From: an uncultured archaeon
GTDB taxonomy: Archaea > Asgardarchaeota > Lokiarchaeia > Sigyniarchaeales > SOKP01
NCBI GenBank assembly: GCA_964388035.1
Contig: CAYLZE010000108.1
Coordinates: 1-17,822 of the forward strand
DNA: 17,822 bases
Direction of reading: 5' to 3'
The position numbers were made by a program, and so were the translations under genes. Shown here piece by piece: positions 1 through 14,465 of this stretch. Numbering within the stretch: position 1 is the stretch's first letter; each line of letters starts with the position of its first letter. The notes under the pieces were generated by a model. It did not search any database and was not told where the DNA came from. It saw only the letters and a list, made by a program, of their open reading frames with translations.

Positions 1-145
1 GATAACTGCGATTATTTGAGATTAACTAGGTAATATTAAAATTTATCCCATGAAATTAAATATCTATTAAATGATTAAATAAGCATTAATTATATAAGCA
101 GAAGGTTCATTTTTACAAATCAGTAAAGTAAGGGGTTGATGTAAT

Positions 146-2011
146 ATCGAAGAGGATAAGATAGGAAAAATTTTAGAAATCGACTTGCAAACTCAAAAAC
201 AAGATGAAATTGTTTTAGATAAAAATCAAATAAGAAGTTTTCTGGGAGGACCCGGTTTCGCAATTAAATATTTATTAGAAAAAAAGGCTTACGAACATGA
301 ACCCTTGAATGAAAAAAATCCTTTAATTTTCATGACAGGATTTCTCACCGGAACTTCTTTTCCCTCCTCTGGGTTTTATTCCGTGTCCGCTCGATCCCCT
401 CAAACTACATTCTACGGAGAAGGATTATCGGGCGGCTTTTTCGGCGCAGAAATGCGTAAAGTACTTAATGGTATTATTTTCAACAATAAGTCCAATATGC
501 CGGTTTATTTATTTATTGATGAAGATCATTTTGAATTAAAAGATGCTTCTGATTTATGGGGGCTAACAACAGAAAAAACTATTAAGACCCTTCAAAATAA
601 ACATGGAAAACAATTCAAGGTTGCTTGTATCGGTCCTGCAGGAGAACTATTAGTACCCCTAGCTTGTATTATTAATGATCATTTTAGAGCCGTAGGAAGA
701 ACCGGAATGGGAGCGGTCATGGGGTCAAAAAATCTGAAAGCTATTGCGATAAATGGAGGAAAGAAAAAAATTGAATATTTTCAAAAGGAAAAATTCAATG
801 AGCTCAGTAAGACTATATTTAAGGCAATTCAGAAATCCCCCATGGGCCAAGTCTTGAAAAATTTTGGTACTAATAATATTGATTATTTTGAACATCTAAA
901 TGATGTTCCCCATAAGAATTGGACCTTACACAAGTTTAGAGACGTGGCTGAATTAACAGGCGCCATTGTATTTGAAAAGTACCAAGTACGCAATGTACCT
1001 TGCTATCTTTGCCCTTATTCCTGTGGACGAGAAATAGAGATTAAAGAAGGCCCTTATAAAATAGAACATGCCGCAGGAACGGAATATGAAACCACCGCCG
1101 CATTTGGTGCCATGTGCCTCATTTCAAATATAGAAGCCGTCGCCTATTTAAACCACTTATGTAATACTTTGGGCGTCGATACCATTTCTACGGGATGTAC
1201 CATTGCTTTTGCCATGGATTGCTATGAAAATGGGATCTTGACTGAAGAACAAATTGGTTTCCCATTAGAATGGGGTGATATCGATGCGGTCATTAAGCTC
1301 ACGGAATTAATCTGTAAAAAGGAAGGTATTGGAATTATCTTGGGGGAAGGATCACGAAAAGCAGCGAAGGTCTTCGGAAAAGGAGCCGATCAGCTTTTAT
1401 CTGATGTGAAAGGATTAGAAGCGCCCATGCATAATCCACGGGCTATTTTCCCCCTTGGCCTACAATATGCCACCTCCAATCGGGGTGCCTGTCATCTCCG
1501 GGGTTTCGCAAACGATTCTTACTCGGGATTTACCGGCTTTAATGAGGATCTGGGAATAACGAAGGAACTTCCCATCCGAAAGCGAACAATTGATGACCCA
1601 AAATTTGCCAAAGATGTTGCCATCATGCAGAATTTATCCGAGATCAACAATGCTCTTGGAATTTGCCGCCAAGTCATCTCTTCAGGAACCCAAATTGTGG
1701 AACATTTGCTCGATAAAATCTTGAAAGCAATCTATTATTTAAATGGGATGGAACTAAGCTTAAAAGAACTTTTACAAATAGGAGAGAAGATCTTCACCAT
1801 GAAAAGAGTATTCAATACCAAATGCGGAATTACCCGAAAAGATGATATCATACCCCCAAGAATACAACGCCCCTTAGAACAAGGAGTTTTAAAAGGTAAA
1901 GTAGTTAAAATTGATGCAATGCTCGAAGAGTACTATAAATTTAGAGGATGGGATAATAATGGAATCCCAACGCAACAGAAACTGATCCAAATGGGCATCG
2001 TGCTGCCTTAA
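146..2011 (+). CDS. aor: Aldehyde:ferredoxin oxidoreductase family (W/Mo-bis-pterin, 4Fe-4S)
   Basis: AOR-family motifs: GGPG, ACIGPAGE, GRTGMGAVMGSKNLKAIA, CxxCxxxC (CYLCPYSC) plus C in NALGIC as 4Fe-4S ligands, EYET, LGVDTIS, RGACH, YYKFRGWD. The track starts at TTG 185, but the frame is open back to TGA 137-139 and encodes the family N-terminal strand GKILEIDL (164-187). Start is therefore placed at ATC 146, behind SD-like AGGGGTTGAT (131-140); exact start uncertain. Confidence 0.95.
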   Translation: MEEDKIGKILEIDLQTQKQDEIVLDKNQIRSFLGGPGFAIKYLLEKKAYEHEPLNEKNPLIFMTGFLTGTSFPSSGFYSVSARSPQTTFYGEGLSGGFFGAEMRKVLNGIIFNNKSNMPVYLFIDEDHFELKDASDLWGLTTEKTIKTLQNKHGKQFKVACIGPAGELLVPLACIINDHFRAVGRTGMGAVMGSKNLKAIAINGGKKKIEYFQKEKFNELSKTIFKAIQKSPMGQVLKNFGTNNIDYFEHLNDVPHKNWTLHKFRDVAELTGAIVFEKYQVRNVPCYLCPYSCGREIEIKEGPYKIEHAAGTEYETTAAFGAMCLISNIEAVAYLNHLCNTLGVDTISTGCTIAFAMDCYENGILTEEQIGFPLEWGDIDAVIKLTELICKKEGIGIILGEGSRKAAKVFGKGADQLLSDVKGLEAPMHNPRAIFPLGLQYATSNRGACHLRGFANDSYSGFTGFNEDLGITKELPIRKRTIDDPKFAKDVAIMQNLSEINNALGICRQVISSGTQIVEHLLDKILKAIYYLNGMELSLKELLQIGEKIFTMKRVFNTKCGITRKDDIIPPRIQRPLEQGVLKGKVVKIDAMLEEYYKFRGWDNNGIPTQQKLIQMGIVLP

Positions 2012-2024
2012 ATTTTATGAATTA

Positions 2025-2040
2025 TTCTTCTTTCTTTTTT
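2025..2040 (+). terminator. Archaeal-type oligo-T/pyrimidine terminator after aor
   Basis: TTCTTCTTTCTTTTTT starting 14 nt after the aor stop codon. Confidence 0.5.
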
Positions 2041-2212
2041 GATCTCGATCTTCAAAATTATCGGGAGTACGGGCTCTCTGTTTCTCGATTACACCATGCA
2101 TATAAAATTTAAATCTCATGAAAGAAATTTTAAAATAACCTAATAGCAAAGTAAGATTTTATCATAATACATTATTAGATTTTCAACTAATTACATTTTT
2201 AATAGTAAAACC

Positions 2213-2884
2213 ATGTCAAAAAAAAATGCAGAAGCAATAATAAAAGAATATTCAAAATTATATACGTGCGCAGTTTCTGATGCAAATGATGAGTTGGGAT
2301 TAGAACCTGGATTTCTCAACCCGGATGTCAGGCCCATTTGGCCGGGAGCCCGCATGGTTGGGTTTGCGAGCACCATGAATTGGGTAAAATCCAACGAGGA
2401 AATGGATAGAAATATTATTGGAAAATTAACCAAATTCCTGAAACAAGTTCCTAAATTCCCCATAATTTGCGTGGACATGTCTGGAGAAATGATTGCTGCG
2501 GGACTGGGACAATCTACCAGCAGGATCCTACAAAAATTTGGATTTCAAGGTGGGCTGGTTAATGGGCCCGTCCGTGATATACCTCAAGTAATTGATTTAA
2601 AATTTCCCATGTTCGCTCGAGGTATAATTTGTTCCTCCGTGAGAAGCAGAATGGTTCTAGATATGAACTCCATAATGAAACCGGTAGAGTGCGGAGGAAG
2701 AACTATCAATCCCCACGATTTAATCTTCGGAGACGTAAATGGTGTAGTAGTGATTCGAGCAGAGAATGTAGAATTGGTACTGGAAAAAGCGAAGGAAATC
2801 ATTTCTACCGATACTTGGTGGTTTAACCAATTAGAACAAGGAAGAGACCCTTCTGATATTGAAAAGGAAAGGCCATTGCCATGA
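2213..2884 (+). CDS. RraA / 4-hydroxy-4-methyl-2-oxoglutarate (HMG) aldolase-like family protein
   Basis: Family motifs TCAVSDA, RPIWPGARMVGFAST, GxLVNGPVRD, KFPMFARG, PVECGGRTINPHDLIFGDVNGVVVI; 223 aa is a typical length. Confidence 0.9.
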   Translation: MSKKNAEAIIKEYSKLYTCAVSDANDELGLEPGFLNPDVRPIWPGARMVGFASTMNWVKSNEEMDRNIIGKLTKFLKQVPKFPIICVDMSGEMIAAGLGQSTSRILQKFGFQGGLVNGPVRDIPQVIDLKFPMFARGIICSSVRSRMVLDMNSIMKPVECGGRTINPHDLIFGDVNGVVVIRAENVELVLEKAKEIISTDTWWFNQLEQGRDPSDIEKERPLP

Positions 2885-2988
2885 TTCATTTTTTATCACT
2901 TTCATTAATATTAATTTGAGTTTTTTTATTTTCATTTAAATTTATAAACTTCTTTGAGAGCAAAAAACCTTTAATCGTGAGATAAGTA

Positions 2989-3804
2989 TTGACAAATAAG
3001 ATTGAAATTCACCCTTTTGACTGGAGTGTAAGACTTTCCAAGCATGTTGATCTTGTCATAGTGTTAATTTTCTGGATGGTGAGTGTTTTTAATTTGGTGG
3101 CAAATTTCATGGTATATTCAATCTATCCTGCTTACGATTTATATTATCCCGGCGTGAACGCTGTTGAAAAGGTCGTGGAGTATTCGATCATTCTCATACC
3201 CCTAAGTTCGTTTTTTTCTATAGTCTTATTAATAGATCGCTATTTAGCCCTAAAAAACTCGAAAAAAACAAGGAAAGATGATAATAAAGCTTCTTCCCTT
3301 GATTTTAACTTTAAAAAGAGGAATCTTATAAGATTTATCATTGGAGGGGTTATCAGTTTCTTTTCCCTCCCATGGATTCTGGCTGTAGTAGGCATTTATG
3401 TCTCCGATGTACCTTTCCTTTCCCTTGTGTTTCTTGGTCGACAACTCTCTCCCTATTCAAATGGACTTCCTTCCGTGCATCTCGGCACGCATCATGGATG
3501 GGATGCTTATTTATTTGCTATATTGTCCCTTGTTGCTTCCACATCTCTTGATAGCAAGTATTATTTTGAAAATAGAGCGCTCCGCTCTATAATGACGGGG
3601 GCAATTACATTCCTGCTGAGTTATGCCTTTTTTGCTGGTTTTGAAGATGGACTCAATGAACAACTCTTAAACAGGGGTATAGACACACCAATTTATTGGT
3701 TTTTCGAAAAAGTATATTATTCCCCCTTCTTATTTCTGGGATTAACTATTGCATCCATTAGTTTTGCCTTATTCTGGTATCTCAAAATTGAAAAGAATGA
3801 ATAA
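2989..3804 (+). CDS. Uncharacterised multi-pass membrane protein (~6 TM) with a VHLGTHHGWD loop motif
   Basis: 271-aa ORF (TTG start) with about six hydrophobic segments and polar loops; no function recognisable. Confidence 0.75.
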   Translation: MTNKIEIHPFDWSVRLSKHVDLVIVLIFWMVSVFNLVANFMVYSIYPAYDLYYPGVNAVEKVVEYSIILIPLSSFFSIVLLIDRYLALKNSKKTRKDDNKASSLDFNFKKRNLIRFIIGGVISFFSLPWILAVVGIYVSDVPFLSLVFLGRQLSPYSNGLPSVHLGTHHGWDAYLFAILSLVASTSLDSKYYFENRALRSIMTGAITFLLSYAFFAGFEDGLNEQLLNRGIDTPIYWFFEKVYYSPFLFLGLTIASISFALFWYLKIEKNE

Positions 3805-3874
3805 GAAGTATTTTAAAGGATGATGTGAAAAAATCTGATTCAGAGGATAGAGGTTAATGTTCATGAGAAAGCAA

Positions 3875-4735
3875 TCACGATTTTTCTAAGTAGTCATGTA
3901 AGGAAAGAGACTTTTCTTGGTATTTAGTAAAAATACTATTGAAAATGGATTGACTCTTAGGATTCTCTAATATAAAATGATGTTGAATGTCAACATCATC
4001 ATTTCTTACCAGAAAAAAGCACATGGACCCTTCAATTTCCATGATGGTAAAATTGAAGGTGATATCTTCCATGATACGAATGTTATCTTCCATCTCCAGA
4101 TATTTCTTCATATCTTGAAAAAATTCGTGATTTCTCAATTCCTCCACGAACTTTTTATCCGTGATTTGATGAAATCTCACGTTCTTAAAAAATGTCAGAT
4201 AAAATTCCATATCAATTGTTCTATCGGGAAAGTAGGTTTTTAAGAGAGCAAGATCAAACTCTAAACTCCACCATCCTAATACTCTTATTTCTCCCTTAAA
4301 GGTTCCTTCATCAATTTCTTCCTTAAATTTACTTAAAAGTTTATCGATGATATTAAAAAAGTGCCAGGATGTTTCTTGGATATCGATTTCCTTTATGAAA
4401 GGTAGTAGGTGCTCAATGAATTGGTGGGGAATTAAATCTGCGGGAATATCGCCAAAAAAATTTTGTAATCTAAGAATTGGCTCGATCTCATTCAATTTTG
4501 TTAATAAATAATCACCTAAGCTAGATACATGGTACTTCTTTTCACGAACAAATAATAATCTTGATTGGATTAACTTTTTAAGATTATCTTGCACGGTTGA
4601 TATGGGAAGAGCCAATTTCCTAGCAGTATCCGTTAGATTATAACTATTTTCTTTATAAAGATTCAATAGATCATGAGCAGTCTCATTGGATATTGTATTT
4701 AGAAGAAAGCTCAATCCGTTAATTTTATTTTCCAT
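3875..4735 (-). CDS. Winged helix-turn-helix transcriptional regulator (ArsR-like N-domain, archaeal DUF1724-like architecture)
   Basis: N-terminal NLTDTARKLALPISTVQDNLKKL...KKYHVSSLG (HTH plus wing) followed by a ~200-aa C-terminal domain; divergent from the methyltransferase pair. Confidence 0.8.
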   Translation of the reverse strand: MENKINGLSFLLNTISNETAHDLLNLYKENSYNLTDTARKLALPISTVQDNLKKLIQSRLLFVREKKYHVSSLGDYLLTKLNEIEPILRLQNFFGDIPADLIPHQFIEHLLPFIKEIDIQETSWHFFNIIDKLLSKFKEEIDEGTFKGEIRVLGWWSLEFDLALLKTYFPDRTIDMEFYLTFFKNVRFHQITDKKFVEELRNHEFFQDMKKYLEMEDNIRIMEDITFNFTIMEIEGSMCFFLVRNDDVDIQHHFILENPKSQSIFNSIFTKYQEKSLSLHDYLEKS

Positions 4736-4765
4736 TGTTTTATCTAATAGAAGAATAACGATTTA

Positions 4766-4790
4766 AAAATTACGGAATCTCCGTAATTTT
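4766..4790. promoter_or_regulatory. Perfect inverted repeat, candidate operator of the wHTH regulator
   Basis: AAAATTACGGA-ATC-TCCGTAATTTT (11-bp arms, 3-nt spacer), 30 nt upstream of the regulator ATG in the divergent intergenic region. Confidence 0.7.
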
Positions 4791-4976
4791 CAAAAATATC
4801 GGAGATTATCGCTCGTCAAGAGATTCTGGAAGATTTAATTGACTTATAATGCGAAATCTTTAAATTTTCTAATTTTCTTTTAAAGATTAATAATAGATTT
4901 TTTTTTAACTTTAGTCATGGGAAAAAAAAATCATTTTTTATATCAAAAACTAAAAAAATAAAAAAGTGAAAGAATC

Positions 4977-5528
4977 TTGATTAGCTTTTTCAATTTGTGG
5001 CTTTTTTATGCGATAGGATACGGTATCGCCATGGTTGTTCAATTGTGGGCAAATAAGAAGCGGGGGGAGCCGTTTGAAGACCCCGAATTACTATTTAGTA
5101 ATAAAAAACTTTTCATTGTCGCCATGATATGGCTCTTCGGTGGATTTGTCATTAGCCTTTTTGTCCCCGTGAATTTTGGCCTTCTATTCTATATTGGCGT
5201 AATATTTTGTATTATTGGTTTTATTATCGTGTTGATAACCTTCTATAGCTTTGCCCAGAAAGCAGGACTCGTTACAAAGGGGATCCAGCGCTACTCCCGA
5301 AATCCCAATTATATAGGATGGACCATCTTTTATTTTGGGCTCTCTCTCATGGGATGGTCTTTATCTATATGGAGCATCATTTTTTTCATCTACTTCCTTA
5401 TTACCATCCCCTACCTTCACTGGTGCGTTATATTAGAAGAAAAATTTTTATCCAAAAAATATGGCGATCCCTACAGAGAATATCTGAAATCAACCCCTCG
5501 GTATTTAGGTAAATCAAAACAAAAATAA
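4977..5528 (+). CDS. Isoprenylcysteine carboxyl methyltransferase / PEMT (Ste14-like) family membrane methyltransferase, copy 1
   Basis: Hydrophobic protein with LVTKGIQRYSRNPNY (R-[HN]-P-x-Y) and EEKFLSKKYGDPYREYLKSTPRY SAM-binding motifs; TTG start. Confidence 0.85.
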   Translation: MISFFNLWLFYAIGYGIAMVVQLWANKKRGEPFEDPELLFSNKKLFIVAMIWLFGGFVISLFVPVNFGLLFYIGVIFCIIGFIIVLITFYSFAQKAGLVTKGIQRYSRNPNYIGWTIFYFGLSLMGWSLSIWSIIFFIYFLITIPYLHWCVILEEKFLSKKYGDPYREYLKSTPRYLGKSKQK

Positions 5529-5563
5529 TTTCATCTTAATAAAAAATAAAATAATAAAAATGT

Positions 5564-6148
5564 GTGATGGAAATAATGTTAAGTCTTTTTAATCTCTGGT
5601 TATTTTATGTGATCGGATATGCAATCGCATTAATTGTTCAAACATGGGCTAATAAGAAGCGAGGAGAACCATTTGATGATCCGGAATTTTTATTCAAGGA
5701 TAAGAAAATCGTCATCATTGCCATGATATGGCTTTTTGGTGGATTTGCGATTAGTCTTTTTGTCCCTCTATCTTTTGGAATTCTATTTTATATAGGTTTA
5801 GTACCATTTATTATCGGATTGGCTATCGTGATAACTGGATTATACTTTTTTGCAAAGAAAAGCGGTCTCATTACATCGGGCGTTAATCGTTATTCCCGCA
5901 ACCCCGGCTATGTAGGATGGTCCATTTTTTACCTGGGACTCACTCTCATGGGATGGTCTTTTTCCATTTGGAGCATTATCTTTTTGATATATTTCCTCAT
6001 TACCATGCCCTATTTCCACTGGACGGTTCTCCTGGAAGAGAAATTTTTATCGCAGAAGTATGGAGATTCTTATAAAGAATATCTAAAGAATACTCCACGA
6101 TATTTAGGAAGGCCAAAAAAAAATGCCTCCTCTAATGTACCCGAATAA
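5564..6148 (+). CDS. ICMT/PEMT family membrane methyltransferase, copy 2 (tandem paralogue)
   Basis: Same motifs (RYSRNPGY, EEKFLSQKYGDSYKEYLKNTPRY). Aligns without gaps to copy 1 from ATG 5576, about 129/183 identical by hand count; real start may be 5567 or 5576. Confidence 0.85.
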   Translation: MMEIMLSLFNLWLFYVIGYAIALIVQTWANKKRGEPFDDPEFLFKDKKIVIIAMIWLFGGFAISLFVPLSFGILFYIGLVPFIIGLAIVITGLYFFAKKSGLITSGVNRYSRNPGYVGWSIFYLGLTLMGWSFSIWSIIFLIYFLITMPYFHWTVLLEEKFLSQKYGDSYKEYLKNTPRYLGRPKKNASSNVPE

Positions 6149-6157
6149 AATTAAATC

Positions 6158-6170
6158 TTTTTTTTTTCTT
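6158..6170 (+). terminator. Oligo-T terminator after the methyltransferase pair
   Basis: T10 run (6158-6167) plus CTT, starting 10 nt after the stop codon. Confidence 0.55.
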
Positions 6171-6745
6171 ATAAATTGGAATGTTTTTTAGAAGAAATAA
6201 AAAACCCATGGAAAATAAAAATTTTTTAGCTATTATCTGAGGCTCTTTCTATTTTAATATATTTTTTAAAGTAAATATAAGGAGAATAAAAGTCTAGATT
6301 TGCGATTTTGTATCATTATATTTTAAAGACCTGTCATGCAAACGGACATATTCTAAGATTAACAAAAAATTAAATTGCGTTTATTTTTATATTGTATTAT
6401 ATATATAATAGTTGCAGAGAAAATAGCTTCATTGAGAAAATTTATTATTTGGATTGATTTGAATATATATACTTTGTCAAACATTTAAATTCACCTTGAA
6501 TAATTTTCATGAATAGATGAGTACAATAAAATAACAAGATCTACACCCTAAAAGGATAAGGAGTTTTTAAAAAATGTCATTTTAACCCTATTAGATTATT
6601 TTCAGAATTGAGATGATTTTAAATATTCTTTTAAAAATGCAAGCATTCCTATTATTGATATTCAATTTCAAGATATATTATGAACGCTGAATTTAATGAA
6701 CGCATGACAAGTGAGAAAGAAAAAGAGATAATCATTCGATTCATT

Positions 6746-6819
6746 CTTGTAAAGGTCGGGAACTTTCAGGTCGTTTACAAGCGGCGCTTTCACGAGTCGG
6801 GGATTCTGAGCCCCGTTCG
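6746..6819. other. GC-rich multi-hairpin element (candidate ncRNA or mobile-element end relic)
   Basis: About 59% GC (39/66 over 6754-6819) within very AT-rich flanks; stems CTTGTAAA/TTTACAAG (6746-6753/6774-6781) and CGAG(T)CGGGG/CCCCGTTCG (6793-6819). Confidence 0.4.
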
Positions 6820-6922
6820 AAAAAATGTAATTCCTACCACAAGTGACTATGAAATAAATAAAGAAAGTAGGAAAACAAGTTAAATAGAAAAGGATAATTA
6901 GTAGAATTTTCTATTTTTTAAA

Positions 6923-7223
6923 ATGGCAAACGTAAAAATGAATAATAAAACGATTTAAGAAAAAAATACAAGCAGAGCTTATTCTTAAATTAGGGGAGAA
7001 ATTTACTCAACAAGAAATTTTGGATAGAAGCGTTGATTTTGTTTATAAACGGTTAGATCAATTCATATACGAAGAACTTAACCATCCCGTTCTTACAAAA
7101 GAAATCATTGATCAAATAAGAAAAAGTGCAATTGATGAGCCACTTTTGGTTCAGGCTGGCTATCATCTTTTATCGGTAAGCTCCCGATTTAATTTTATAA
7201 GTTATAAAATTTATGTGCGATAG
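6923..7223 (+). pseudogene. Frameshifted small antitoxin-like protein (orphan, partner absent)
   Basis: ATG 6923 MANVKMNNKTI ends at TAA 6956; the +1 frame continues KKIQAELILKLGEKFTQQEILDRSVDFVYKRLDQFIYEEL into the track ORF 7020-7223. The pattern resembles archaeal RHH-like antitoxins found upstream of PIN toxins (recognition from memory). Protein-like character fades after ~7145. Confidence 0.6.
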
Positions 7224-7259
7224 ATTAATTTAGATGTATTTCTACTAATTATATAGAAT

Positions 7260-7493
7260 ATGACTCAAGTTAAATTAGATAAAGCTGTTGCGGAAGATCT
7301 CATAACTTCTAAAATGAGAGTCCTCCAAGAATATATTAACTCAATTCTTAAACGTTGGAATGAAACATCTACAAAATCATTTTTAGAAAAAGCTCGTTCT
7401 GGAGAATATGAAAATGCAGAAGAAGATGCAGTAGAATTGCGACAGCTATTATTGGATTATTCTAAATTTCAAGAGCTTTTAAATGATTTTTAA
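7260..7493 (+). CDS. Small helical protein, putative antitoxin partner of the downstream DUF6516 gene
   Basis: 77 aa; STKSFLEKARSGEYENAEEDAVE resembles the S-x2-F-x4-G-x5-D pattern of TumA-like antitoxins; 26 nt upstream of the DUF6516 ATG. Confidence 0.65.
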   Translation: MTQVKLDKAVAEDLITSKMRVLQEYINSILKRWNETSTKSFLEKARSGEYENAEEDAVELRQLLLDYSKFQELLNDF

Positions 7494-7519
7494 ATTTTAT
7501 TAAGAGTTTGTATTTAATT

Positions 7520-7882
7520 ATGGATTCTCGTGTAAAGCTCAATTTAGCATTCCATATCCTAACTAATGAATTTAAAGATGTTTTAAGAGAAATAATTGTT
7601 TATAAAGATCGCCCTGTTTTAAAAGCAATATTCCAGAATGAGATTATTCTTAATGTTCGCTACAATGATTATGGAGAATATACATATAGTGTAATATATT
7701 CTCCTAATCCCGATGATCAAATGCGTTTTGATAATTATGATGATAGATGGAATGTAAAAACTAGACCACACCATTTTCACATAAGGGGTATGCAATCTGT
7801 AAAGGAAAGTCCAATGAAAGGAGAACCAAATCAAGATATTCCGATCTTAATTAGGAAAATTATAGAGTATCTAAAGAAATAG
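7520..7882 (+). CDS. DUF6516 / TumE-like putative toxin
   Basis: YTYSV...MRFDNYDDRWNVKTRPHHFH matches the R-[YF]-D-N...P-H-H-x-H signature; ATG 7520 preferred over track TTG 7508. Confidence 0.7.
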   Translation: MDSRVKLNLAFHILTNEFKDVLREIIVYKDRPVLKAIFQNEIILNVRYNDYGEYTYSVIYSPNPDDQMRFDNYDDRWNVKTRPHHFHIRGMQSVKESPMKGEPNQDIPILIRKIIEYLKK

Positions 7883-8005
7883 TTAATAATAATCACTTTC
7901 GAATGATATTTCCATTTTCTTATTGGAGATTAACTCTCCTTTATTCTTATCTTTAGTATTAGAAACGTTCTTATCTTTTTTATATTTATCTATCGAAATA
8001 GCCAT

Positions 8006-8038
8006 CATTTTTAGTGACCTAACCATTTTTTAGTGACC
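8006..8038. repeat. Short tandem duplication CATTTTT(T)AGTGACC x2
   Basis: CATTTTTAGTGACC (8006-8019) and CATTTTTTAGTGACC (8024-8038), differing by one T. Confidence 0.7.
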
Positions 8039-8249
8039 CGAAATGCAATACCAGAAATTCTTTTTTCGATAACTGAATTTGATATATTTTCTTCTGCCGT
8101 GGATTAAAGCTAAAAACATCTGATAATAAACTCAAAACAGAAGTAAGTTTATGAATTATATTAAAGCTGAAGAAGAGCAAATATAAGACAAAAATTAATA
8201 AATATTGAAGATAAGCGCTTTGAATGAGTTTTGAATATAAACAGAACTA

Positions 8250-8267
8250 TTTAAATAGATCTATTTA
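8250..8267 (+). promoter_or_regulatory. vapBC TATA box overlapped by a perfect 16-bp palindrome (autoregulatory operator candidate)
   Basis: TTTAAATA (8250-8257) ends 22 nt before ATG 8280, suggesting a leaderless transcript; TAAATAGATCTATTTA (8252-8267) is its own reverse complement. Confidence 0.65.
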
Positions 8268-8279
8268 TAATAAATATAC

Positions 8280-8498
8280 ATGACCCAGAAAACTGTATCA
8301 CTATCTGAACAAGTGTATGAACTGCTTAAACGGGAAAAGAGAGAGGGGGAGTCCTTTTCTGATGTAATTGAACGATTGTTAACAAGAGAAAAGAATCCTT
8401 GGATAACGATACAAAAAAAATTCGATCCCGAAGTATTTGAAGGGTTAAAAGAAAGAATAAGTAGGATAAGGGAAGAAGATTTGACCGGAAGCGATTAA
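8280..8498 (+). CDS. vapB: Archaeal VapB antitoxin (UPF0330/DUF217 family)
   Basis: KTVSLSEQVYELLKREKREGESFSDVIERL signature; 1 nt from the PIN gene. Confidence 0.9.
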   Translation: MTQKTVSLSEQVYELLKREKREGESFSDVIERLLTREKNPWITIQKKFDPEVFEGLKERISRIREEDLTGSD

Positions 8499-8499
8499 C

Positions 8500-8928
8500 A
8501 TGGAAAAAATCATGGAAACAGACGTTGTAATTGATTATTTAAGGGGTAAATCTCCAGATATTACCGAGAAAATCATTAATATGATAGAAAAAGGTACTGA
8601 ACTCATAATAACCCAAATTACTGTTAGCGAATTATGGTATGGTGTATTTAGTTTAAAGTCTAAAAAAAAGCAAATTTCTGAAGCTAAAACTTTAAATGAT
8701 TTCCTTTTAAATTTGATAGATATCAAGACAATAGATAATGCTGCCAGCAAGATTTACGGAGAGATTTGTGCGGAATTAGATAGAGCAGGATTAAGGGTTC
8801 CAAAATTTGATTTATTAAACGCATCAATAGCTATCTCTAATAAAATTAATCTTATTACCCGCGATAAAAGGCATTATTCAAGGATCAACGAATATTCAGA
8901 CTTTAATTTCCTTGAATTATGGAATTAA
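8500..8928 (+). CDS. vapC: VapC PIN-domain ribonuclease toxin
   Basis: ETDVVIDYL, ITQITVSELWYG, FDLLNASIA, LITRDKRHY; 142 aa. Confidence 0.92.
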   Translation: MEKIMETDVVIDYLRGKSPDITEKIINMIEKGTELIITQITVSELWYGVFSLKSKKKQISEAKTLNDFLLNLIDIKTIDNAASKIYGEICAELDRAGLRVPKFDLLNASIAISNKINLITRDKRHYSRINEYSDFNFLELWN

Positions 8929-8994
8929 GCATGTATTTAAATCACACAATATACTCCTTATAATTAAATCCGGATATTTGTCCAAAAACGTGGC

Positions 8995-9027
8995 TTATTC
9001 ATTAAAGCAAGTTGGAAATTTAGGCAT
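8995..9027 (-). pseudogene. hicA: HicA toxin N-terminal stub
   Basis: ATG at 9027 overlaps the hicB end (GATGCCTAA) and reads MPKFP, the typical HicA start MPK[LF]P; similarity is then lost and TAA follows after 10 codons. Confidence 0.45.
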
Positions 9028-9244
9028 CAATAGTCAAGCTTATTGCATATTTTAGAGTGTCATTTTCAGTAGGAATTTCCTCCCAATGAGCATGCAAGCT
9101 TTCAAGATATAATATTATTGCTTCGTTGGCCATCAAAAGAGCATCCTCAATCGTATCACTAAAAGTAACACGACCGCGTAAACTTGGGACAATTACAGTA
9201 TAATCACCTCCTGGTTCTTTTCGGTTTTTTTAAAATACCCTCAT
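9020..9244 (-). pseudogene. hicB: HicB family antitoxin pseudogene
   Basis: Minus strand reads MRVF*KNRKEPGGDYTVIVPSLRGRVTFSDTIEDALLMANEAIILYLESLHAHWEEIPTENDTLKYAISLTIDA*. This is the HicB pattern (Y-x-V-x-VP-x-L-x-G...T-x-E-x-A-x4-EA), with a premature TAA at 9232-9230 and the usual LPGC...G degraded to LRGR...S. Confidence 0.85.
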
Positions 9245-9505
9245 TCTTTCAACGTTCTCTCTATTGAAGGTTAGATTTTGATATATATATGATGAATTCA
9301 ATATTTTTCTGTATTGATTGAACGGATTACATTTTCCTTTTTGTATTCAATAGAAATTTTAATGCTTTCCACTATAAACTTGAAGTAGCTTAAAAACAAA
9401 TATTGGGGAATCCAAAGATATAAATGTCTTATCGGTTGAAATGCTAGTAAAAATGAACAATCTCAACATTTAACAAATAAATTAAACGAATATGAGGTGT
9501 TAAAA

Positions 9506-10030
9506 ATTCCACCACATTGCGATACCTTAGATGGTCCGGTAGTATTAGCCGCAAAAGAGGCATTAAAAAATCAAAATGTTAATTTAATTCTTCCTTGGGT
9601 ATATAAAGAAGGAGAGAAGGAAGTGAAAGATGCTTTTGAAAAAGCTATAAAGGTGTATAATGAGGGGAGCGAGGATGCGAAAAAGCTTGCCGAATATTGG
9701 TTTTTTGAAACCGTCGTTCGCGTGCATCGAGAAGGGGAAGGGGCGTCTTATACGGGGCTAAAACCTGCAGGGTTGGATCCTGGACCAATCATTCCAAAAG
9801 TGGATAAAGCAATAAAAGCGGGAGATATCTCAGAAGTAGTTAACTATATTCAAAAAGCTATTGCAGAAGAAATATCGGAACATTTTAAGCATGTAATGCT
9901 CTCCAAGGATTATGATATTGATGATGTTCCTTCAGCCCGAAAGCACATCAATGCTTATTTACATTTAACTTTATATTCTCATCATTTATATCAATTTATA
10001 AAGAATCCTATCCTACATGAAAACGAATAG
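9506..10030 (+). CDS. DUF6448 family protein
   Basis: PPHCDTLDGPVV, FFETVVRVHREGEGASYTGLKPAG and YSHH motifs. The track GTG 9497 lies inside the SD (GAGGTG 9494-9499), so ATT 9506 is the likely start. Confidence 0.85.
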   Translation: MPPHCDTLDGPVVLAAKEALKNQNVNLILPWVYKEGEKEVKDAFEKAIKVYNEGSEDAKKLAEYWFFETVVRVHREGEGASYTGLKPAGLDPGPIIPKVDKAIKAGDISEVVNYIQKAIAEEISEHFKHVMLSKDYDIDDVPSARKHINAYLHLTLYSHHLYQFIKNPILHENE

Positions 10031-10461
10031 ATAACTCTTCGCGATACGCATCTGAATAGATTATCCTTAGCATAGTAAATTCTTTTTAAATGGAGAGAAG
10101 GCAAATCTTCAAGGGAATGATTATATTGGTTTAGAAAATGAGTCTTGATATAGCTTGGATATCTGTCATATGAATTTATATTTCCTATGAAAGAGAATCT
10201 CGAAACAATTTTTGGTATTCCTAACAATTAGGATATTTTTTTATAAATCTGAAAAACAGTATCACAGCAGGTTAGCCTATATTTGTCGAGCATCACGTTG
10301 TCTTATTAATACACCAATGTCAATAGTAAATGAAGCAATCCTGAAGTTGGCGATGATTAGCCTGATAACTTTAGGGCTGGCCTTTCATCTACTGGAAAGA
10401 TAATTAGAATAAATTCTGAAATTATATAGAAAATTACCAATTATTATAAATAATTTAAAGG

Positions 10462-10929
10462 TTATTCAACAAATATCTCATAACTATTGTTAATTTTAGA
10501 TTTGATTGATTTGGCAAGAGGACACCGTTCCTCAGTTATCTCTAGTATGCGCCGTGCCTTGGATTCTCTTTCCGATGATGGAATCTTCAACACGATTTTT
10601 TGTTCGATTGTTTCCATCATTTTCTCACCTGTCGTTGTACCTACATGTCCCTTGGCTTCAATTATTAACCTATTATATTTAAATTTAGAATTTGATGAAA
10701 CCACTGAAAAAGTTGTTATAAAACACCCGGAAATTGCAGCGATGAAAAAATGTTCGGGAGTGTAGGCTAATTCTCCATTCTCTCCCTTTGGTCCTTCATA
10801 AGCAATGGGAAGCTGGAATTTAATCTCGGGTAAGGAACTATTTTGCGGGTCTTTAACTGCATGTATTCTTTTCCGATTGTCTTCAATAATATCTCCACTC
10901 ACGATTTTCATTTGAAACACATCTGTCAT
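10462..10929 (-). CDS. OsmC/Ohr family protein
   Basis: YEGP...YTPEHFFIAAISGCF and EERCPLAKS with both family cysteines; SD GAGGT upstream of the ATG. Confidence 0.88.
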   Translation of the reverse strand: MTDVFQMKIVSGDIIEDNRKRIHAVKDPQNSSLPEIKFQLPIAYEGPKGENGELAYTPEHFFIAAISGCFITTFSVVSSNSKFKYNRLIIEAKGHVGTTTGEKMMETIEQKIVLKIPSSERESKARRILEITEERCPLAKSIKSKINNSYEIFVE

Positions 10930-11190
10930 TATCTAACCTCTCATGAGATGTAATTTTATTAAAAAATGTAAAGGATAGGAGAAGAAAGTAAAAATTTCTT
11001 TAAGTCTTTTATTATTTGAAGGATAAAGTTAGCTTAGAGGTTAAAGGAAGGTCAATAACTCTTATCTAAATCTCCAAGCATCCACAATTCTCACTTTATT
11101 TTAAATATGTTTTTTTTGATAAAGTCGTGTATTGTTCGTTATTAAGTAGCAAACAACATTAATTATTATCAAGGGAGTTAAATATTATAT

Positions 11191-11823
11191 ATGATTGAGA
11201 ATGAAATCAAAACGGAATCTATTCAAGGAAAGCCTTTTATTGATGAATTTCATGAAGTCTCATGCGAGTATGATAATTTACTCCATGCTTACCCACCTTT
11301 GCAGCAATTCAAGAAACGCTTGAGGAATTTAATTAAGAAAGATTCTTATTATTTTGATTCATATCTCACGCTTGCGGATATTTTAATAGAGGAAAATCAA
11401 TTAGGGGAAGCAAGAAAGCTAATAAAAGAGGGATTTGATAACGCAATAAAAAGATTGACGTGCAATAAGGGAAGATGGCCCAGAATCCTTGAATGGGGAT
11501 ATATGGAAAACCGCCATATCATTAGAATATTGGATAGGTGGGGGATGGATTTATGGGATGATGGAAATACAGAGGAAGCTCTTGATCATTTTAGAAATCT
11601 CTTTAAGAGCAATCCATCCGATAATATCGGTGTCAGATTTAACATTTTAGCAATTCGGATGGGATTAGATTCAAAATATGAAAGGAAATTCGCGTCAACA
11701 ATTCCCGGATTCCTTGATGCACGTAAAGTATTTCAATGGTTTGAGCAAAATTCCAAAAAGTTTCCCGATGAGTTCCAATGGTGGTGGGACAAAATTAAAA
11801 AAGAAGAAAAGGAAATAAAATAA
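11191..11823 (+). CDS. Tetratricopeptide-repeat-like helical protein
   Basis: YFDSYLTLADIL...GEARKLIKEG, LEWGYMENRHIIR and GNTEEALDHFRNLFKSNPSDNIGVRF are typical of a TPR-like uncharacterised family. Confidence 0.75.
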   Translation: MIENEIKTESIQGKPFIDEFHEVSCEYDNLLHAYPPLQQFKKRLRNLIKKDSYYFDSYLTLADILIEENQLGEARKLIKEGFDNAIKRLTCNKGRWPRILEWGYMENRHIIRILDRWGMDLWDDGNTEEALDHFRNLFKSNPSDNIGVRFNILAIRMGLDSKYERKFASTIPGFLDARKVFQWFEQNSKKFPDEFQWWWDKIKKEEKEIK

Positions 11824-12390
11824 AAAGATAAGAAAATAAAACAAGAAGATGAGAGCCATGCATCTCAAATTTATCAATTAAAAATCTCAATAAAAGATAT
11901 CAAAACGCCCATCTGGCGTCGAATTTTAATTTCAAGTCATGTCACTTATGAAGATCTCCATGACGCAATTCAAGAGTTCTTTTATTGGGAAGGGTATCAT
12001 TTGCATGAATTTTATTTCCAGGAAAAGTATTATAATGCTCGCTTTTTAATAATGGGAGCAGATAATGATGAAAACATGGATGAAGATCTTGACTATGACG
12101 CACGGGAAGATGAAATTTACCTTTTTGAGGGGTTTTCAATAGGACAAAAATCAGTGAATTATATCTATGATTTCGGAGATTACTGGGAACATCACATCAA
12201 ATTAGAAAGGATTTTTCCACAGAAGGAAAATTTTCCCTCTCCTCTATGTGTAGGAGGAAAACGTGCAGCTCCTCCCGAGGATTGTGGAGGAATATTTGGT
12301 TATGAAAAAATTCTTAAAATCATTCACAATCCAAAGCATCCTAAATATCAAGAAACAAGGGAATGGGTGGGAAGAAACTTTGACCCCTAA
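11824..12390 (+). CDS. Plasmid pRiA4b ORF-3 family domain (no ATG/GTG/TTG start of its own; possibly part of an interrupted fusion)
   Basis: Same frame as the TPR gene: IYQLKISIKDIKTPIWRRILI...TYEDLHDAIQEFFYWEGYHLHEF...YIYDFGDYWEHHI...CVGGKRAAPPEDCGGIFGY...FDP*. The track ORF at 12001 omits the N-terminal third. Confidence 0.85.
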   Translation, partial: KDKKIKQEDESHASQIYQLKISIKDIKTPIWRRILISSHVTYEDLHDAIQEFFYWEGYHLHEFYFQEKYYNARFLIMGADNDENMDEDLDYDAREDEIYLFEGFSIGQKSVNYIYDFGDYWEHHIKLERIFPQKENFPSPLCVGGKRAAPPEDCGGIFGYEKILKIIHNPKHPKYQETREWVGRNFDP

Positions 12391-12563
12391 GATTTGGGGA
12401 TAGAAATTCAAAAAATGATGCCAAAAAAAATTGAACAAGAATATAGTTCCTAAATAGAAAGACTTATCATCTTAAAAACGAGATATCCTTATGAAAATGA
12501 ATAAAAAATCTATGTTTAGATATTTAATAGTAGAATAATGAAATAAATTAAAAATGAGAGAAC

Positions 12564-12719
12564 ATGTATAAAGAAAATAATGAAGAAGTTCCAATATATG
12601 AAAGACTAGCACCTGGAGAATGTTTAGTAATATCAAAGGACAAGAATGGCATATTAGTTGTGTGCAATAAATACGGTAAAATCGAAATGAGCAAAGTTCC
12701 TTATCCTAAGGAAGGTTAA
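12564..12719 (+). CDS. Small 51-aa hypothetical protein (not in ORF track)
   Basis: MYKENNEEVPIYERLAPGECLVISKDKNGILVVCNKYGKIEMSKVPYPKEG*; ATG start, protein-like beta-strand periodicity, two Cys. Confidence 0.65.
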   Translation: MYKENNEEVPIYERLAPGECLVISKDKNGILVVCNKYGKIEMSKVPYPKEG

Positions 12720-13045
12720 AGTGATTTAAGTAGTGTAATTTTTAATATAGATTTAAATGATCTGTTAAATCGAAATGAACAATTTTTAAAGTAGATTAGT
12801 ATAGGTAAGGAAAAAAAAGAAACCTCTTAACTTACTCTTATTCGAGATTCTTATTGCGGTATTTTTTATAAATTTTCTAAAAATTTTGGGTTTTCAATCG
12901 TGGAAGCTAAATTATTACAACTGAAATTCCTATAAAACCTAATGAAAATATTCATGCATAAACTCAAAATTATTCATTAAATGCCATTAGAAATAAATCA
13001 GTATTTAAGGATTTTTATTTAAATGAGAATTACTTTATATAAATC

Positions 13046-13684
13046 ATGGAAATAGACTTAGATTTTCCCTATAAAATAGTATTAAAAGAAGAATATTTGG
13101 TACTGAAACCAGATGTTTCGGAAGAGAAGTTCTGGGAAATTTCTAACGAAGATACAAATTTCGAACTTTTAAATGGGGTGCTATATATTAATTCTCCTGC
13201 TAACCGAGAACATGAAGAAATTTTTAAATATTTACTAATTATATTCTCATATTATTTAGAAACAATTGAAAAAGGGAAAGTATATGGCTCCCGATTTGCC
13301 ATGCGATTATCTCCAACCTGGATCCCTGAACCTGATCTAATGATACTATTACCTCCAAACTATGACAAAATTAAAGAGACCCGAGTAGAAGGTGCTCCAG
13401 ATTTAGTCGTCGAGATCTTATCAAAAAGTACGAAAGATGTAGATATTCAGAAAAAATTACCAAAATATCTAATGGAGGGTATTAAAGAGGTGTGGATGAT
13501 CAATCCGATGAATAAAGAGATCGAAATTTTTTGGGAAAATGAATCGAGGACTTGGCAGGAAGAAAATATAGAAGAATCCGTGATTTCTGTCGTACTACCC
13601 AAACTTAATTTTCGACCTAAATGGTTATGGCACAGGGAACAATTTCCTGCGAGCTCAGTCCTCAATCTAATCGAGAAGAAGTAA
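13046..13684 (+). CDS. Uma2 (DUF820) family PD-(D/E)xK endonuclease
   Basis: ELLNGVLYINSPANREHE, PEPDL, GAPDLVVEILSKST, KKLPKY...GIKEVWMINP. Confidence 0.92.
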   Translation: MEIDLDFPYKIVLKEEYLVLKPDVSEEKFWEISNEDTNFELLNGVLYINSPANREHEEIFKYLLIIFSYYLETIEKGKVYGSRFAMRLSPTWIPEPDLMILLPPNYDKIKETRVEGAPDLVVEILSKSTKDVDIQKKLPKYLMEGIKEVWMINPMNKEIEIFWENESRTWQEENIEESVISVVLPKLNFRPKWLWHREQFPASSVLNLIEKK

Positions 13685-14001
13685 TCAAATTTTCTCTCTT
13701 TCTGCCTTCTTGTTCAGTTTGGAGTAAAAAGCGGTAGATTAATTGTTTCAATATATTCGGTAATTTAATTGGATGTTACGATCTAATTAATTTAACCTTC
13801 AATTAGAATTTTTACTCTAATATCAAACTTAAGGTAATATAATTAACTAAAAACTTCTAAATATGAAATAGAATTAAATAATATCAAATTTTAATAATTA
13901 AATGGCTTAATAAATAATTATGAGTAATTTTGGTTATTCAACATATCTAAGCAATAAATTTAAGATTTTAAATCAATATAATATAGTAGAGGCTTAAAAT
14001 T

Positions 14002-14187
14002 ATTGCTACAGACCAGGAAAATATATTACAAAGGATTAAACATTTGCCCGATGATATTAATATGGAGGATATTATCGAATCTATTTAAATGAGATATAAA
14101 ATTTTAAAGGGTTTAAATGATTCTGAGGGAGACCGAATATATTCACAAAAAGAGGCAAACAAGATATTAACAAAATGGTTAGAGTGA
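14002..14187 (+). pseudogene. Antitoxin of RelE/ParE-type module, premature stop
   Basis: (I)ATDQENILQRIKHLPDDINMEDIIESI*MRYKILKGLNDSEGDRIYSQKEANKILTKWLE*; LPDD...KI-x-KGL-x-D...EA...KW antitoxin pattern; TAA at 14086; overlaps the toxin ATG. Confidence 0.8.
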
Positions 14188-14465
14188 AATGGACCAAGAA
14201 TGCCCTTGAAGATCTAGATGAAATAGCTCATTATATTTCTAGGGACTCACCAAAATTTGCCAAAATTACGGTTTCTCGAATTTTCGAAATGGCGAGCCAT
14301 TTAGAATAATTTCCCAAATTAGGCAAGAACGTCCCAGAATATAATGATCCTAATCTCCGCGAAAATTTAAATAAAAATTATAGAATTATCTATCTTATTA
14401 AGGATGTACAATTAGAAATTATTTCTGTAATGCATAATAGTCGTAAGTTAAATCTTTTTTATTAA
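14175..14465 (+). pseudogene. RelE/ParE family toxin, premature stop
   Basis: MVRVKWTKNALEDLDEIAHYISRDSPKFAKITVSRIFEMASHLE*FPKLGKNVPEYNDPNLRENLNKNYRIIYLIKDVQLEIISVMHNSRKLNLFY*; full length with in-frame TAA at 14307. Confidence 0.88.

Follow-up and report, generated by a model that had tools for sequence, protein, structure and literature searches.

The use of AUU as a start codon is known from bacterial infC, which encodes IF3, and from E. coli pcnB. In these genes a near-cognate AUU behind a Shine-Dalgarno (SD) sequence is read by the normal initiator tRNA and, in the case of infC, the gene of the fidelity factor itself carries the weak codon, which allows feedback on stringency (PMC4705826). 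In eukaryotes, eIF1 rejects non-AUG codons and limits its own synthesis through a weak start site (PMC4705826, PMC6237735), although there initiation relies on scanning and Kozak context and near-cognate starts are mostly CUG, GUG or ACG at low efficiency. Mitochondria routinely use AUA, AUU and AUC as starts, but AUA is apparently also reassigned to methionine and its decoding seems to rely on a modified C34. Archaeal initiation, by contrast, is described in reviews as using only AUG, GUG and UUG (PMC7531240), and S. solfataricus aIF1, the homologue of eIF1, rejects an AUU mRNA in vitro (as cited in PMC4705826). In the papers searched we found a single anecdotal Asgard ATT start, a 'rare ATT start codon' proposed for the tubulin gene atubA of a Kariarchaeaceae MAG, whose deposited protein lacked its first beta-strand and was repaired for cloning by assuming an upstream ATT at a plausible distance from an RBS (PMC13394414).

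We examined a window of 17,822 nucleotides (contig CAYLZE010000108.1, assembly GCA_964388035.1) from a salt-marsh Asgard archaeon of the Promethearchaeota (Lokiarchaeia-type), together with the remainder of its genome and related genomes. Our analysis suggests that, in this organism and its family, ATT and ATA, and less often ATC, very probably act as start codons in about 6-9% of SD-led genes, essential ones included. E. coli AUU starts, in comparison, appear to concern only two or three genes out of about 4300. The pattern further differs from the bacterial one in that AUA is used as well as AUU and that the fidelity factor is aIF1, which is unrelated to IF3; from the eukaryotic one in that selection is SD-positioned and specific to the third base; and from the mitochondrial one in that AUA and AUU remain abundant internal isoleucine codons and no modification is known. 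Unlike the single-gene remark on atubA, it is quantified here genome-wide and traced through a family.

ATH codons at three genes of the window

An earlier note, made from the sequence alone, had proposed that three independent genes of the window begin at SD-positioned isoleucine codons (ATH), at spacings within the range of the ATG genes osmC and xpb. To assess this, the anti-SD was read from the 16S 3' end (...GGATCACCTCCT), which lies at the edge of another contig of the genome, C189; the Rfam archaeal SSU model itself found no 16S gene. All three codons were found in frame and at the spacing claimed. The comparison genes fit the same spacing range: osmC (10462..10929, minus strand; Pfam OsmC) starts at ATG 10929 with an SD run of 5 and a gap of 3 nt, and the xpb helicase (16059..17378, minus strand; Pfam XPB_DRD, ResIII and Helicase_C) starts at ATG 17378 with an SD run of 4 and a gap of 6 nt.

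The aldehyde:ferredoxin oxidoreductase gene aor (146..2011, plus strand) starts at ATC 146-148, 5 nt after the SD-aligned window 131..140 (AGGGGTTGAT), which has 8 of 10 matches to AGGAGGTGAT, the complement of the 16S 3' end, and contains the in-frame stop TGA 137-139. Translation from ATC 146 yields a full-length protein in which AFOR_N (PF02730) covers residues 7-204, corresponding to profile positions 1-198 of 199, and PF01314 is matched over profile positions 1-385 of 385. The first canonical start, TTG 185, is residue 14 and lies inside AFOR_N. Significantly, seven orthologues with 59-75% identity have ATG exactly at the position of ATC 146 (MEKEKDGKILEVD in one orthologous genome, G009, against IEEDKIGKILEID here). 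The ATC is therefore not conserved and could be a recent, tolerated or mildly harmful change.

The DUF6448 gene (9506..10030, plus strand) begins at ATT 9506-9508, 4 nt after the SD window 9492..9501 (core GAGGTG 9494-9499; run of 6, 8 of 10 matches), giving (M)PPHCD. The only canonical alternative, GTG 9497, lies inside the SD itself. Pfam (PF20046, 177.8 bits, profile 1-146 of 147, residues 9-156) cannot decide between the two codons, since the model begins after PPHCD. We therefore turned to homologue N-termini: in 95 of the 120 best homologues the start residue directly precedes PPHCD (MPPHCD, a few VPPHCD). Furthermore, three family orthologues keep GAGGTG or AAGGTG, followed by 2-3 variable codons and then ATT/ATA-CCT-CCA-CAT-TGT. 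ATT 9506 thus lies exactly at the Met1 of the family, although initiation at the in-frame GTG cannot be formally excluded.

The third case was not supported as an independent example. ATT 14002-14004 (with a second ATT at 13999 and the in-frame stop TAG at 13987) follows GAGG 13989-13992, which alone serves as SD, with a gap of 5 nt, and lies near the position of the Met1 of paralogues. However, the antitoxin gene (13990..14187, plus strand) is interrupted by the in-frame TAA 14086-14088, where paralogues on contigs C155 and C172, which start at ATG, read through. The adjoining ParE/RelE toxin gene (14175..14465, plus strand; ATG 14175) is likewise interrupted, by TAA 14307-14309, and matches ParE_toxin (profile 1-88 of 89) and TIGR02385 only if this codon is read as X; its paralogue on C172 is intact. 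The interruptions were missed in the earlier note, and this decayed pair is uninformative.

A further gene, with a PRiA4_ORF3 domain (11836..12390, plus strand), has no canonical start before its domain, which covers residues 11-184 (profile 1-166), while the first canonical start, TTG 12001, is residue 56. It may begin at ATA 11836 or ATT 11869 or, being in the same frame as the upstream TPR ORF and lacking a clear SD, represent the tail of a TPR-PRiA4 fusion broken by TAA 11821-11823. This case remains unresolved.

ATT and ATA behind ribosome-binding sites across the genome and family

We next asked whether the pattern extends to the genome. Raw counts of triplets after GGTGA, GAGGT or GGAGG were uninformative, showing no start peak even for ATG because internal coding copies dominate. 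We therefore examined SD sites with at least 5 contiguous matches upstream of long ORFs with no ATG, GTG or TTG at gaps of 2-8 nt. The in-frame codon was ATH in 46/106 cases at gap 5 and in 23/87 at gap 6, against 9/130 and 10/149 out of frame (p=3e-11 and 6e-5). Taken over 5-6 nt downstream, the figures were 69 of 195 in frame against 19 of 283 out of frame (p=2e-15). Three decoy motifs showed no effect. Remarkably, only ATA (p=3e-8) and ATT (p=3e-7) of 61 sense codons were enriched; ATC alone was not significantly enriched (5 against 3). At gap 5, ATT and ATA are used about as often as TTG and more often than GTG (ATT 27, ATA 15 and ATC 4 against ATG 81, TTG 32 and GTG 12). The excess amounts to about 56 genes beside 562 canonical SD-led starts (about 9%) or, with a 4-nt SD, about 99 beside 1453 (about 6%); genes without an SD fall outside these estimates. 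The second residue is serine in 27.5% of ATH candidates and 17% of canonical starts, against 6.9% after internal ATH codons (p=1e-7). ATH starts do not have stronger SDs than ATG starts (mean run 5.64 against 5.49, p=0.2), giving no sign of compensation for a weak codon.

Candidates whose first canonical start lies at least 15 codons downstream were then compared with Pfam. In 13 of 37 the domain begins upstream of that start. These include ribosomal S10 (residue 5 = profile 1, canonical at 45), PCNA (3 = profile 2), ATP-synt_D of the V-ATPase (12 = profile 1), AOR (3 = profile 2, canonical at 76), Ras, ApbA, aldo-keto reductase, ECH and others. One of the 37 was a false positive, an internal SD-like site in an FGGY kinase.

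Relatives within the family (f1) interchange ATH with canonical codons at the same Met1. The S10 Met1 codon is ATA in 7 genomes, ATT in 1, GTG in 7, ATG in 2 and TTG in 1, with 3 others carrying none of these at the aligned position; the ATH and GTG starts follow a GGTG core. AtpD has ATT, ATC or ATA in 16 of 22 f1 genomes, several with an in-frame stop directly upstream, although in several orthologues an in-frame GTG inside the SD cannot be formally excluded as the start. PCNA has TAA-ATT in two genomes (G000 and G001) against ATG elsewhere. The habit is shared by 13 genera of the family and, at least sporadically, by a sister family (f2). In 205 kb of G024, a genome of another genus, ATH was found in 6/6 cases in frame against 1/10 out of frame. 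In 400 kb of G032, a complete sister-family genome, the counts were 5/10 against 3/18, including a MazF gene whose domain starts 23 residues before its first canonical start, and this sample could thus not serve as a control lineage lacking ATH starts.

Interestingly, the gene of aIF1, the start-codon fidelity factor, itself begins at such a codon. In the 22 f1 loci examined, an ATT or ATC (ATA in one) follows an SD-like AAGGTTGTGA and precedes the Zn knuckle. Most have no canonical start between the in-frame stop and the first Cys; in four, an in-frame GTG lies within or near the SD-like stretch, and in several orthologues a GTG inside the SD cannot be formally excluded as the start. The sister family mostly has ATG, GTG or TTG.

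How ATH starts may be read

We consider it very likely (probability about 0.85), albeit without N-terminal peptides, ribosome profiling or toeprints, that AUU and AUA, and less often AUC, work as start codons on SD-led mRNAs in this genome and its family, supporting the inference of the earlier note that SD-guided initiation here tolerates third-position mismatches. The enrichment indicates that the SD:anti-SD duplex (core GGTGA) places the P site about 5-6 nt after the aligned AGGAGGTGAT window. We infer that the ordinary initiator Met-tRNA, anticodon CAU, pairs with the first two bases and tolerates a mismatch at the third. Discrimination against such codons is normally exerted by aIF1, and the conserved AUU/AUC start of its own gene would hold aIF1 at a level where AUH starts stay usable, a feedback resembling those of infC/IF3 and eIF1 that is inferred and has not been demonstrated.

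Of the alternatives, an unlikely but surviving one is that AUH starts are read by a dedicated component, either a second initiator-like tRNA with another anticodon or a modified C34 on the initiator tRNA, much as f5C34 probably lets mitochondrial tRNA-Met read AUA. ATT and ATA are both used heavily, and the absence of stronger SDs suggests that these starts are not very weak. The one initiator tRNA found (C31:36337-36435; A1:U72, three G:C pairs in the anticodon stem) has an ordinary CAU anticodon, and a scan for GGG-YU-NNN-R-N-CCC stem-loops, with hits read by eye and not folded, gave mostly T-arm sequences and nothing resembling an initiator anticodon arm with another anticodon. However, ARAGORN and Rfam searches recovered only about 20 of an expected 45 or so tRNA genes, because most carry introns, such that a second, unusual initiator cannot be excluded, and modifications cannot be seen in DNA.

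It is less likely that ATH codons are sites of termination-reinitiation within operons, where a ribosome that has just terminated restarts with little regard for codon identity. Many ATH starts are in frame with a TGA inside the GGTGA motif, the PRiA4 candidate ATA 11836 lies 12 nt after the upstream stop without an SD, and S10 and AtpD are probably operon-internal genes in archaea. Nevertheless, the stop inside the SD is part of the SD motif and not usually the end of an upstream gene, aor ATC 146 and DUF6448 ATT 9506 follow AT-rich non-coding stretches with no upstream ORF ending there, and the enrichment depends on the real SD sequence and on SD-like spacing.

We regard as improbable that the ATH codons are ordinary isoleucine codons, with translation starting at the nearest canonical codon (TTG 185 for aor, GTG 9497 for DUF6448, downstream ATG, GTG or TTG elsewhere) and the upstream in-frame sequence untranslated. 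Gene callers do choose such starts: the database entry for the DUF6448 protein of the window begins at GTG 9497 (MLKIPPHCD), which keeps the whole Pfam domain, and isoleucine codons are common in this 33% GC genome, at about 10% of internal codons. However, TTG 185 removes profile positions 1-7 of AFOR_N, the first canonical start lies inside a Pfam domain in 13 tested genes (44 codons into the 101-residue S10, for example), and neither the frame- and spacing-specific enrichment nor the serine signature is expected of internal isoleucine codons. Additionally, GTG 9497 has no SD of its own, and the codons between it and the ATH vary in number and sequence among orthologues whilst ATH-PPHCD is fixed.

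Finally, although the genome is a 211-contig MAG with 7% contamination, the toxin-antitoxin pair is truly broken and the aor ATC is unique to this genome, assembly or sequencing errors or pseudogenes are a very doubtful explanation, since the same ATH start positions recur in independently assembled genomes of 13 genera for essential single-copy genes (S10, AtpD, aIF1), errors would not be restricted to the third base of start codons at one spacing and one frame, and the genes are otherwise intact with full-length domain matches.

Implications for annotation and for start-codon selection

Prodigal-type gene callers allow only ATG, GTG and TTG, and thus perhaps a hundred or more proteins per genome in this family are truncated or given false N-termini. 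This is visible in public DUF6448 entries that begin inside the domain and in the Asgard tubulin case (PMC13394414), and it affects structure prediction and the expression of Asgard 'eukaryotic signature' proteins.

More tentatively, it is possible that Lokiarchaeia-type Asgard archaea run translation initiation at a permanently lowered third-base stringency, set by an aIF1 whose own mRNA starts at AUU, in a homeostat convergent with bacterial IF3/infC and eukaryotic eIF1. On this reading AUU and AUA would be regular start codons, the third and fourth most used, which the cell can tune globally through the aIF1 level. A lineage in which AUU and AUA start essential genes, and aIF1 itself, offers a natural system for studying how the stringency of e/aIF1-type proofreading is set, and bears on how strict AUG selection arose in the archaeal relatives of eukaryotes.

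Start sites on contig C108

The window is a whole 17.8-kb contig (C108) of a 5.47-Mb metagenome-assembled genome (MAG) of 211 contigs, with a GC content of 33%, completeness of 96.7% and contamination of 7.3%. Close relatives are deposited as 'Promethearchaeota archaeon' MAGs, and the stretch occurs in salt-marsh metagenome runs. The 3' end of the 16S rRNA, located at the edge of contig C189, reads ...GGATCACCTCCT, so the ideal Shine-Dalgarno (SD) sequence is AGGAGGTGATCC. The earlier note had proposed that three genes on this contig start at ATT or ATC codons (ATH, here also including ATA) positioned by an SD, and all three sites were found to be as described. ATC 146 is in frame with aor; the only stop upstream, TGA 137-139, lies inside the SD-aligned decamer 131-140 (8 of 10 matches), and the gap is 5 nt. 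ATT 9506 of the DUF6448 gene follows GAGGTG 9494-9499 with a gap of 4 nt, whilst ATT 14002 of the antitoxin gene follows a bare GAGG with a gap of 5 nt.

When aor was read from ATC 146, Pfam AFOR_N was found to cover residues 7-204 (profile 1-198). The first canonical start, TTG 185, is residue 14 and would cut into the domain. The seven closest orthologues (59-75% identity) all have ATG exactly where this genome has ATC; one of them, from the related genome G009, reads MEKEKDGKILEVD where this genome reads IEEDKIGKILEID. This case holds, although the ATC is specific to this genome.

For DUF6448, 95 of the 120 best database homologues begin with the start residue directly before PPHCD (MPPHCD, a few VPPHCD). 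The ATT thus sits at the Met1 of the family, as the earlier note had stated. GTG 9497 is in frame and cannot be formally excluded as the start, but it is part of the SD. Furthermore, three family orthologues keep GAGGTG or AAGGTG, followed by two or three codons that vary in number and sequence and then by ATT/ATA-CCT-CCA-CAT-TGT, which is the behaviour of a spacer followed by a start. Several public Asgard MAG entries of DUF6448 (our set P0011-P0017) begin 10-35 residues inside the domain (for example MVLAAKEAL... and MEGEDEV...). This is what a gene caller produces when no canonical start exists, and is the signature of missed non-canonical starts in deposited annotations.

The antitoxin, conversely, is not a valid case. 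Its frame is broken by TAA 14086-14088, and the neighbouring ParE/RelE toxin matches its Pfam and NCBIfam models over their full length only if TAA 14307-14309 is read through. Intact paralogues elsewhere in the genome start at ATG and run through both positions. A third in-frame TAA lies nearby at 11821-11823, giving three interruptions within 2.5 kb (TPR/PRiA4, antitoxin and ParE toxin) in a stretch that also holds PIN and Uma2 genes; this is most simply a decaying defence or mobile islet. Within 11182-12390 (+), a PRiA4_ORF3 domain begins 45 codons before the first canonical start (TTG 12001), in an ORF that shares the frame of the upstream TPR ORF and is separated from it only by TAA 11821-11823, with Lys/Glu-rich sequence on both sides. 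This is either a fourth ATH start (ATA 11836 or ATT 11869, with no clear SD) or a broken fusion gene. Additionally, the TTG 4977 start of a PEMT-like membrane protein is immediately preceded by an in-frame ATC 4974 behind AAGTGAA, and either codon is at a usable spacing (gap 3 or 6).

ATH codons behind SD sites across the genome

We next sought the same pattern genome-wide. A set of 4441 long stop-to-stop ORFs covering 83% of the genome was taken, and every SD-like site (at least 5 contiguous matches within the 10-nt aligned window) lying at or upstream of the first canonical start was examined. In 562 sites an ATG (423), TTG (102) or GTG (37) follows in frame at gap 2-8. In the remaining sites, the in-frame codon is ATT, ATA or ATC in 46 of 106 at gap 5 and in 23 of 87 at gap 6, whereas the out-of-frame figures are 9 of 130 and 10 of 149 (p=3e-11 and 6e-5). 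Other gaps are near background. Three decoy motifs (ACCACCTGAT, AGGAAATGAT and the reversed SD) gave no such effect.

Of the 61 sense codons, only ATA (26 against 3, p=3e-8) and ATT (38 against 13, p=3e-7) are enriched; ATC (5 against 3) is not, and ACG is borderline (6 against 2, at gap 5-6). At gap 5 the counts are ATG 81, TTG 32, ATT 27, ATA 15, GTG 12 and ATC 4. After subtraction of the out-of-frame background, the excess amounts to about 56 genes beside 562 canonical ones (about 9%), or, with a 4-nt SD threshold, to about 99 beside 1453 (about 6%). ATH starts do not carry stronger SDs than ATG starts. Interestingly, the residue after the candidate ATH is Ser in 27.5% of cases, as at canonical starts (17%) and unlike after internal ATH codons (6.9%; p=1e-7).

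To assess these candidates by homology, we tested 37 whose first canonical start lies at least 15 codons downstream. In 13, a Pfam domain begins upstream of that canonical start and within a few residues of the ATH. These comprise ribosomal protein S10 (residue 5 = profile 1, first canonical start at codon 45 of 101), PCNA (residue 3 = profile 2), V-type ATPase subunit D (AtpD; residue 12 = profile 1), a second AOR (residue 3 = profile 2, first canonical start at codon 76), two Ras-family GTPases, ApbA, an aldo-keto reductase, an enoyl-CoA hydratase, CitMHS (C21:37486), DUF362, Creatinase_N and an alpha/beta hydrolase. One candidate was a false positive (an internal site in an FGGY kinase), and the rest were uninformative.

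Start codons in related genomes

Forty relatives were searched, 24 in the same family (f1; 13 genera) and 16 in three sister families. In f1, the Met1 codon of S10 (M-QKARIRL) is ATA in 7 genomes, ATT in 1, GTG in 7, ATG in 2 and TTG in 1, while three others carry none of these at the aligned position. The ATH and GTG starts follow a GGTG core; the ATG and TTG ones do not. In two genomes (G009 and G019) the S10 Met1 position reads TCG behind CCGGTGAG, with no start-like codon within five codons upstream, and the start there is unexplained. The sister family f2 mostly has ATG. For AtpD, 16 of 22 f1 genomes have ATT, ATC or ATA at Met1 (M-SF-K/R), several with an in-frame stop one to three codons upstream. 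One family member (G003, contig C139) has ACG at this position directly after an in-frame TGA, raising the possibility that second-base near-cognates may be used occasionally. PCNA has TAA-ATT in the genome studied here and its congener, and ATG elsewhere. This free interchange of ATH with canonical starts at a fixed position, in essential single-copy genes of independently assembled genomes, rules out assembly error and pseudogenes as a general explanation.

Partial genomes were then passed through the same pipeline. A 205-kb piece of another f1 genus gave 6 of 6 in frame against 1 of 10 out of frame, and a 400-kb piece of a closed f2 genome gave 5 of 10 against 3 of 18. The latter includes a MazF/PemK gene whose domain (residue 8 = profile 2) starts 23 residues before its first canonical start. 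The habit is therefore family-wide and at least sporadic in the order.

Initiator tRNA, aIF1 and a possible mechanism

The one recognisable initiator tRNA (C31:36337-36435; A1:U72, three G:C pairs in the anticodon stem, one intron of 23 nt after position 37) has the normal CAU anticodon. However, only about 20 tRNA genes were detectable by ARAGORN or the Rfam tRNA model, most of them carrying introns, and tRNA finding in this lineage needs special tools; the set is too incomplete to exclude a second initiator.

The gene for aIF1 (SUI1; C78:3054-3377, +) is present once and is full length. Remarkably, it has no ATG, GTG or TTG before its zinc knuckle: its frame opens only two codons before an ATT, and the first canonical start (TTG) lies after the first Cys pair of the knuckle. 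In the 22 family loci examined, an SD-like AAGGTTGTGA, often with its TGA in frame, is followed about three codons later by ATT or ATC (ATA in one) and then by K/N-D/E...IC. Most of these loci have no canonical start between the in-frame stop and the first Cys, although in four an in-frame GTG lies within or near the SD-like stretch. Sister families mostly use ATG, GTG or TTG. According to the literature, aIF1 destabilises initiation complexes on non-AUG mRNA, and S. solfataricus aIF1 rejects an AUU mRNA in vitro (PMC6237735, PMC4705826). A fidelity factor that itself starts at AUU is the logic of bacterial infC. We therefore favour lowered, self-limited aIF1 stringency acting on SD-positioned complexes, although this step is inference.

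Reviews of archaeal initiation name only AUG, GUG and UUG (PMC7531240, PMC4705826). Our literature searches revealed one remark on 'a rare ATT start codon' for an Asgard tubulin gene (PMC13394414) and no systematic description. The observation made in the earlier note is confirmed, and its interpretation of relaxed start-codon selection is supported, from sequence evidence alone, for two of the three genes and, more importantly, genome- and family-wide. Near-cognate initiation is itself known; what differs here is its unprecedented frequency, and its occurrence in Archaea.
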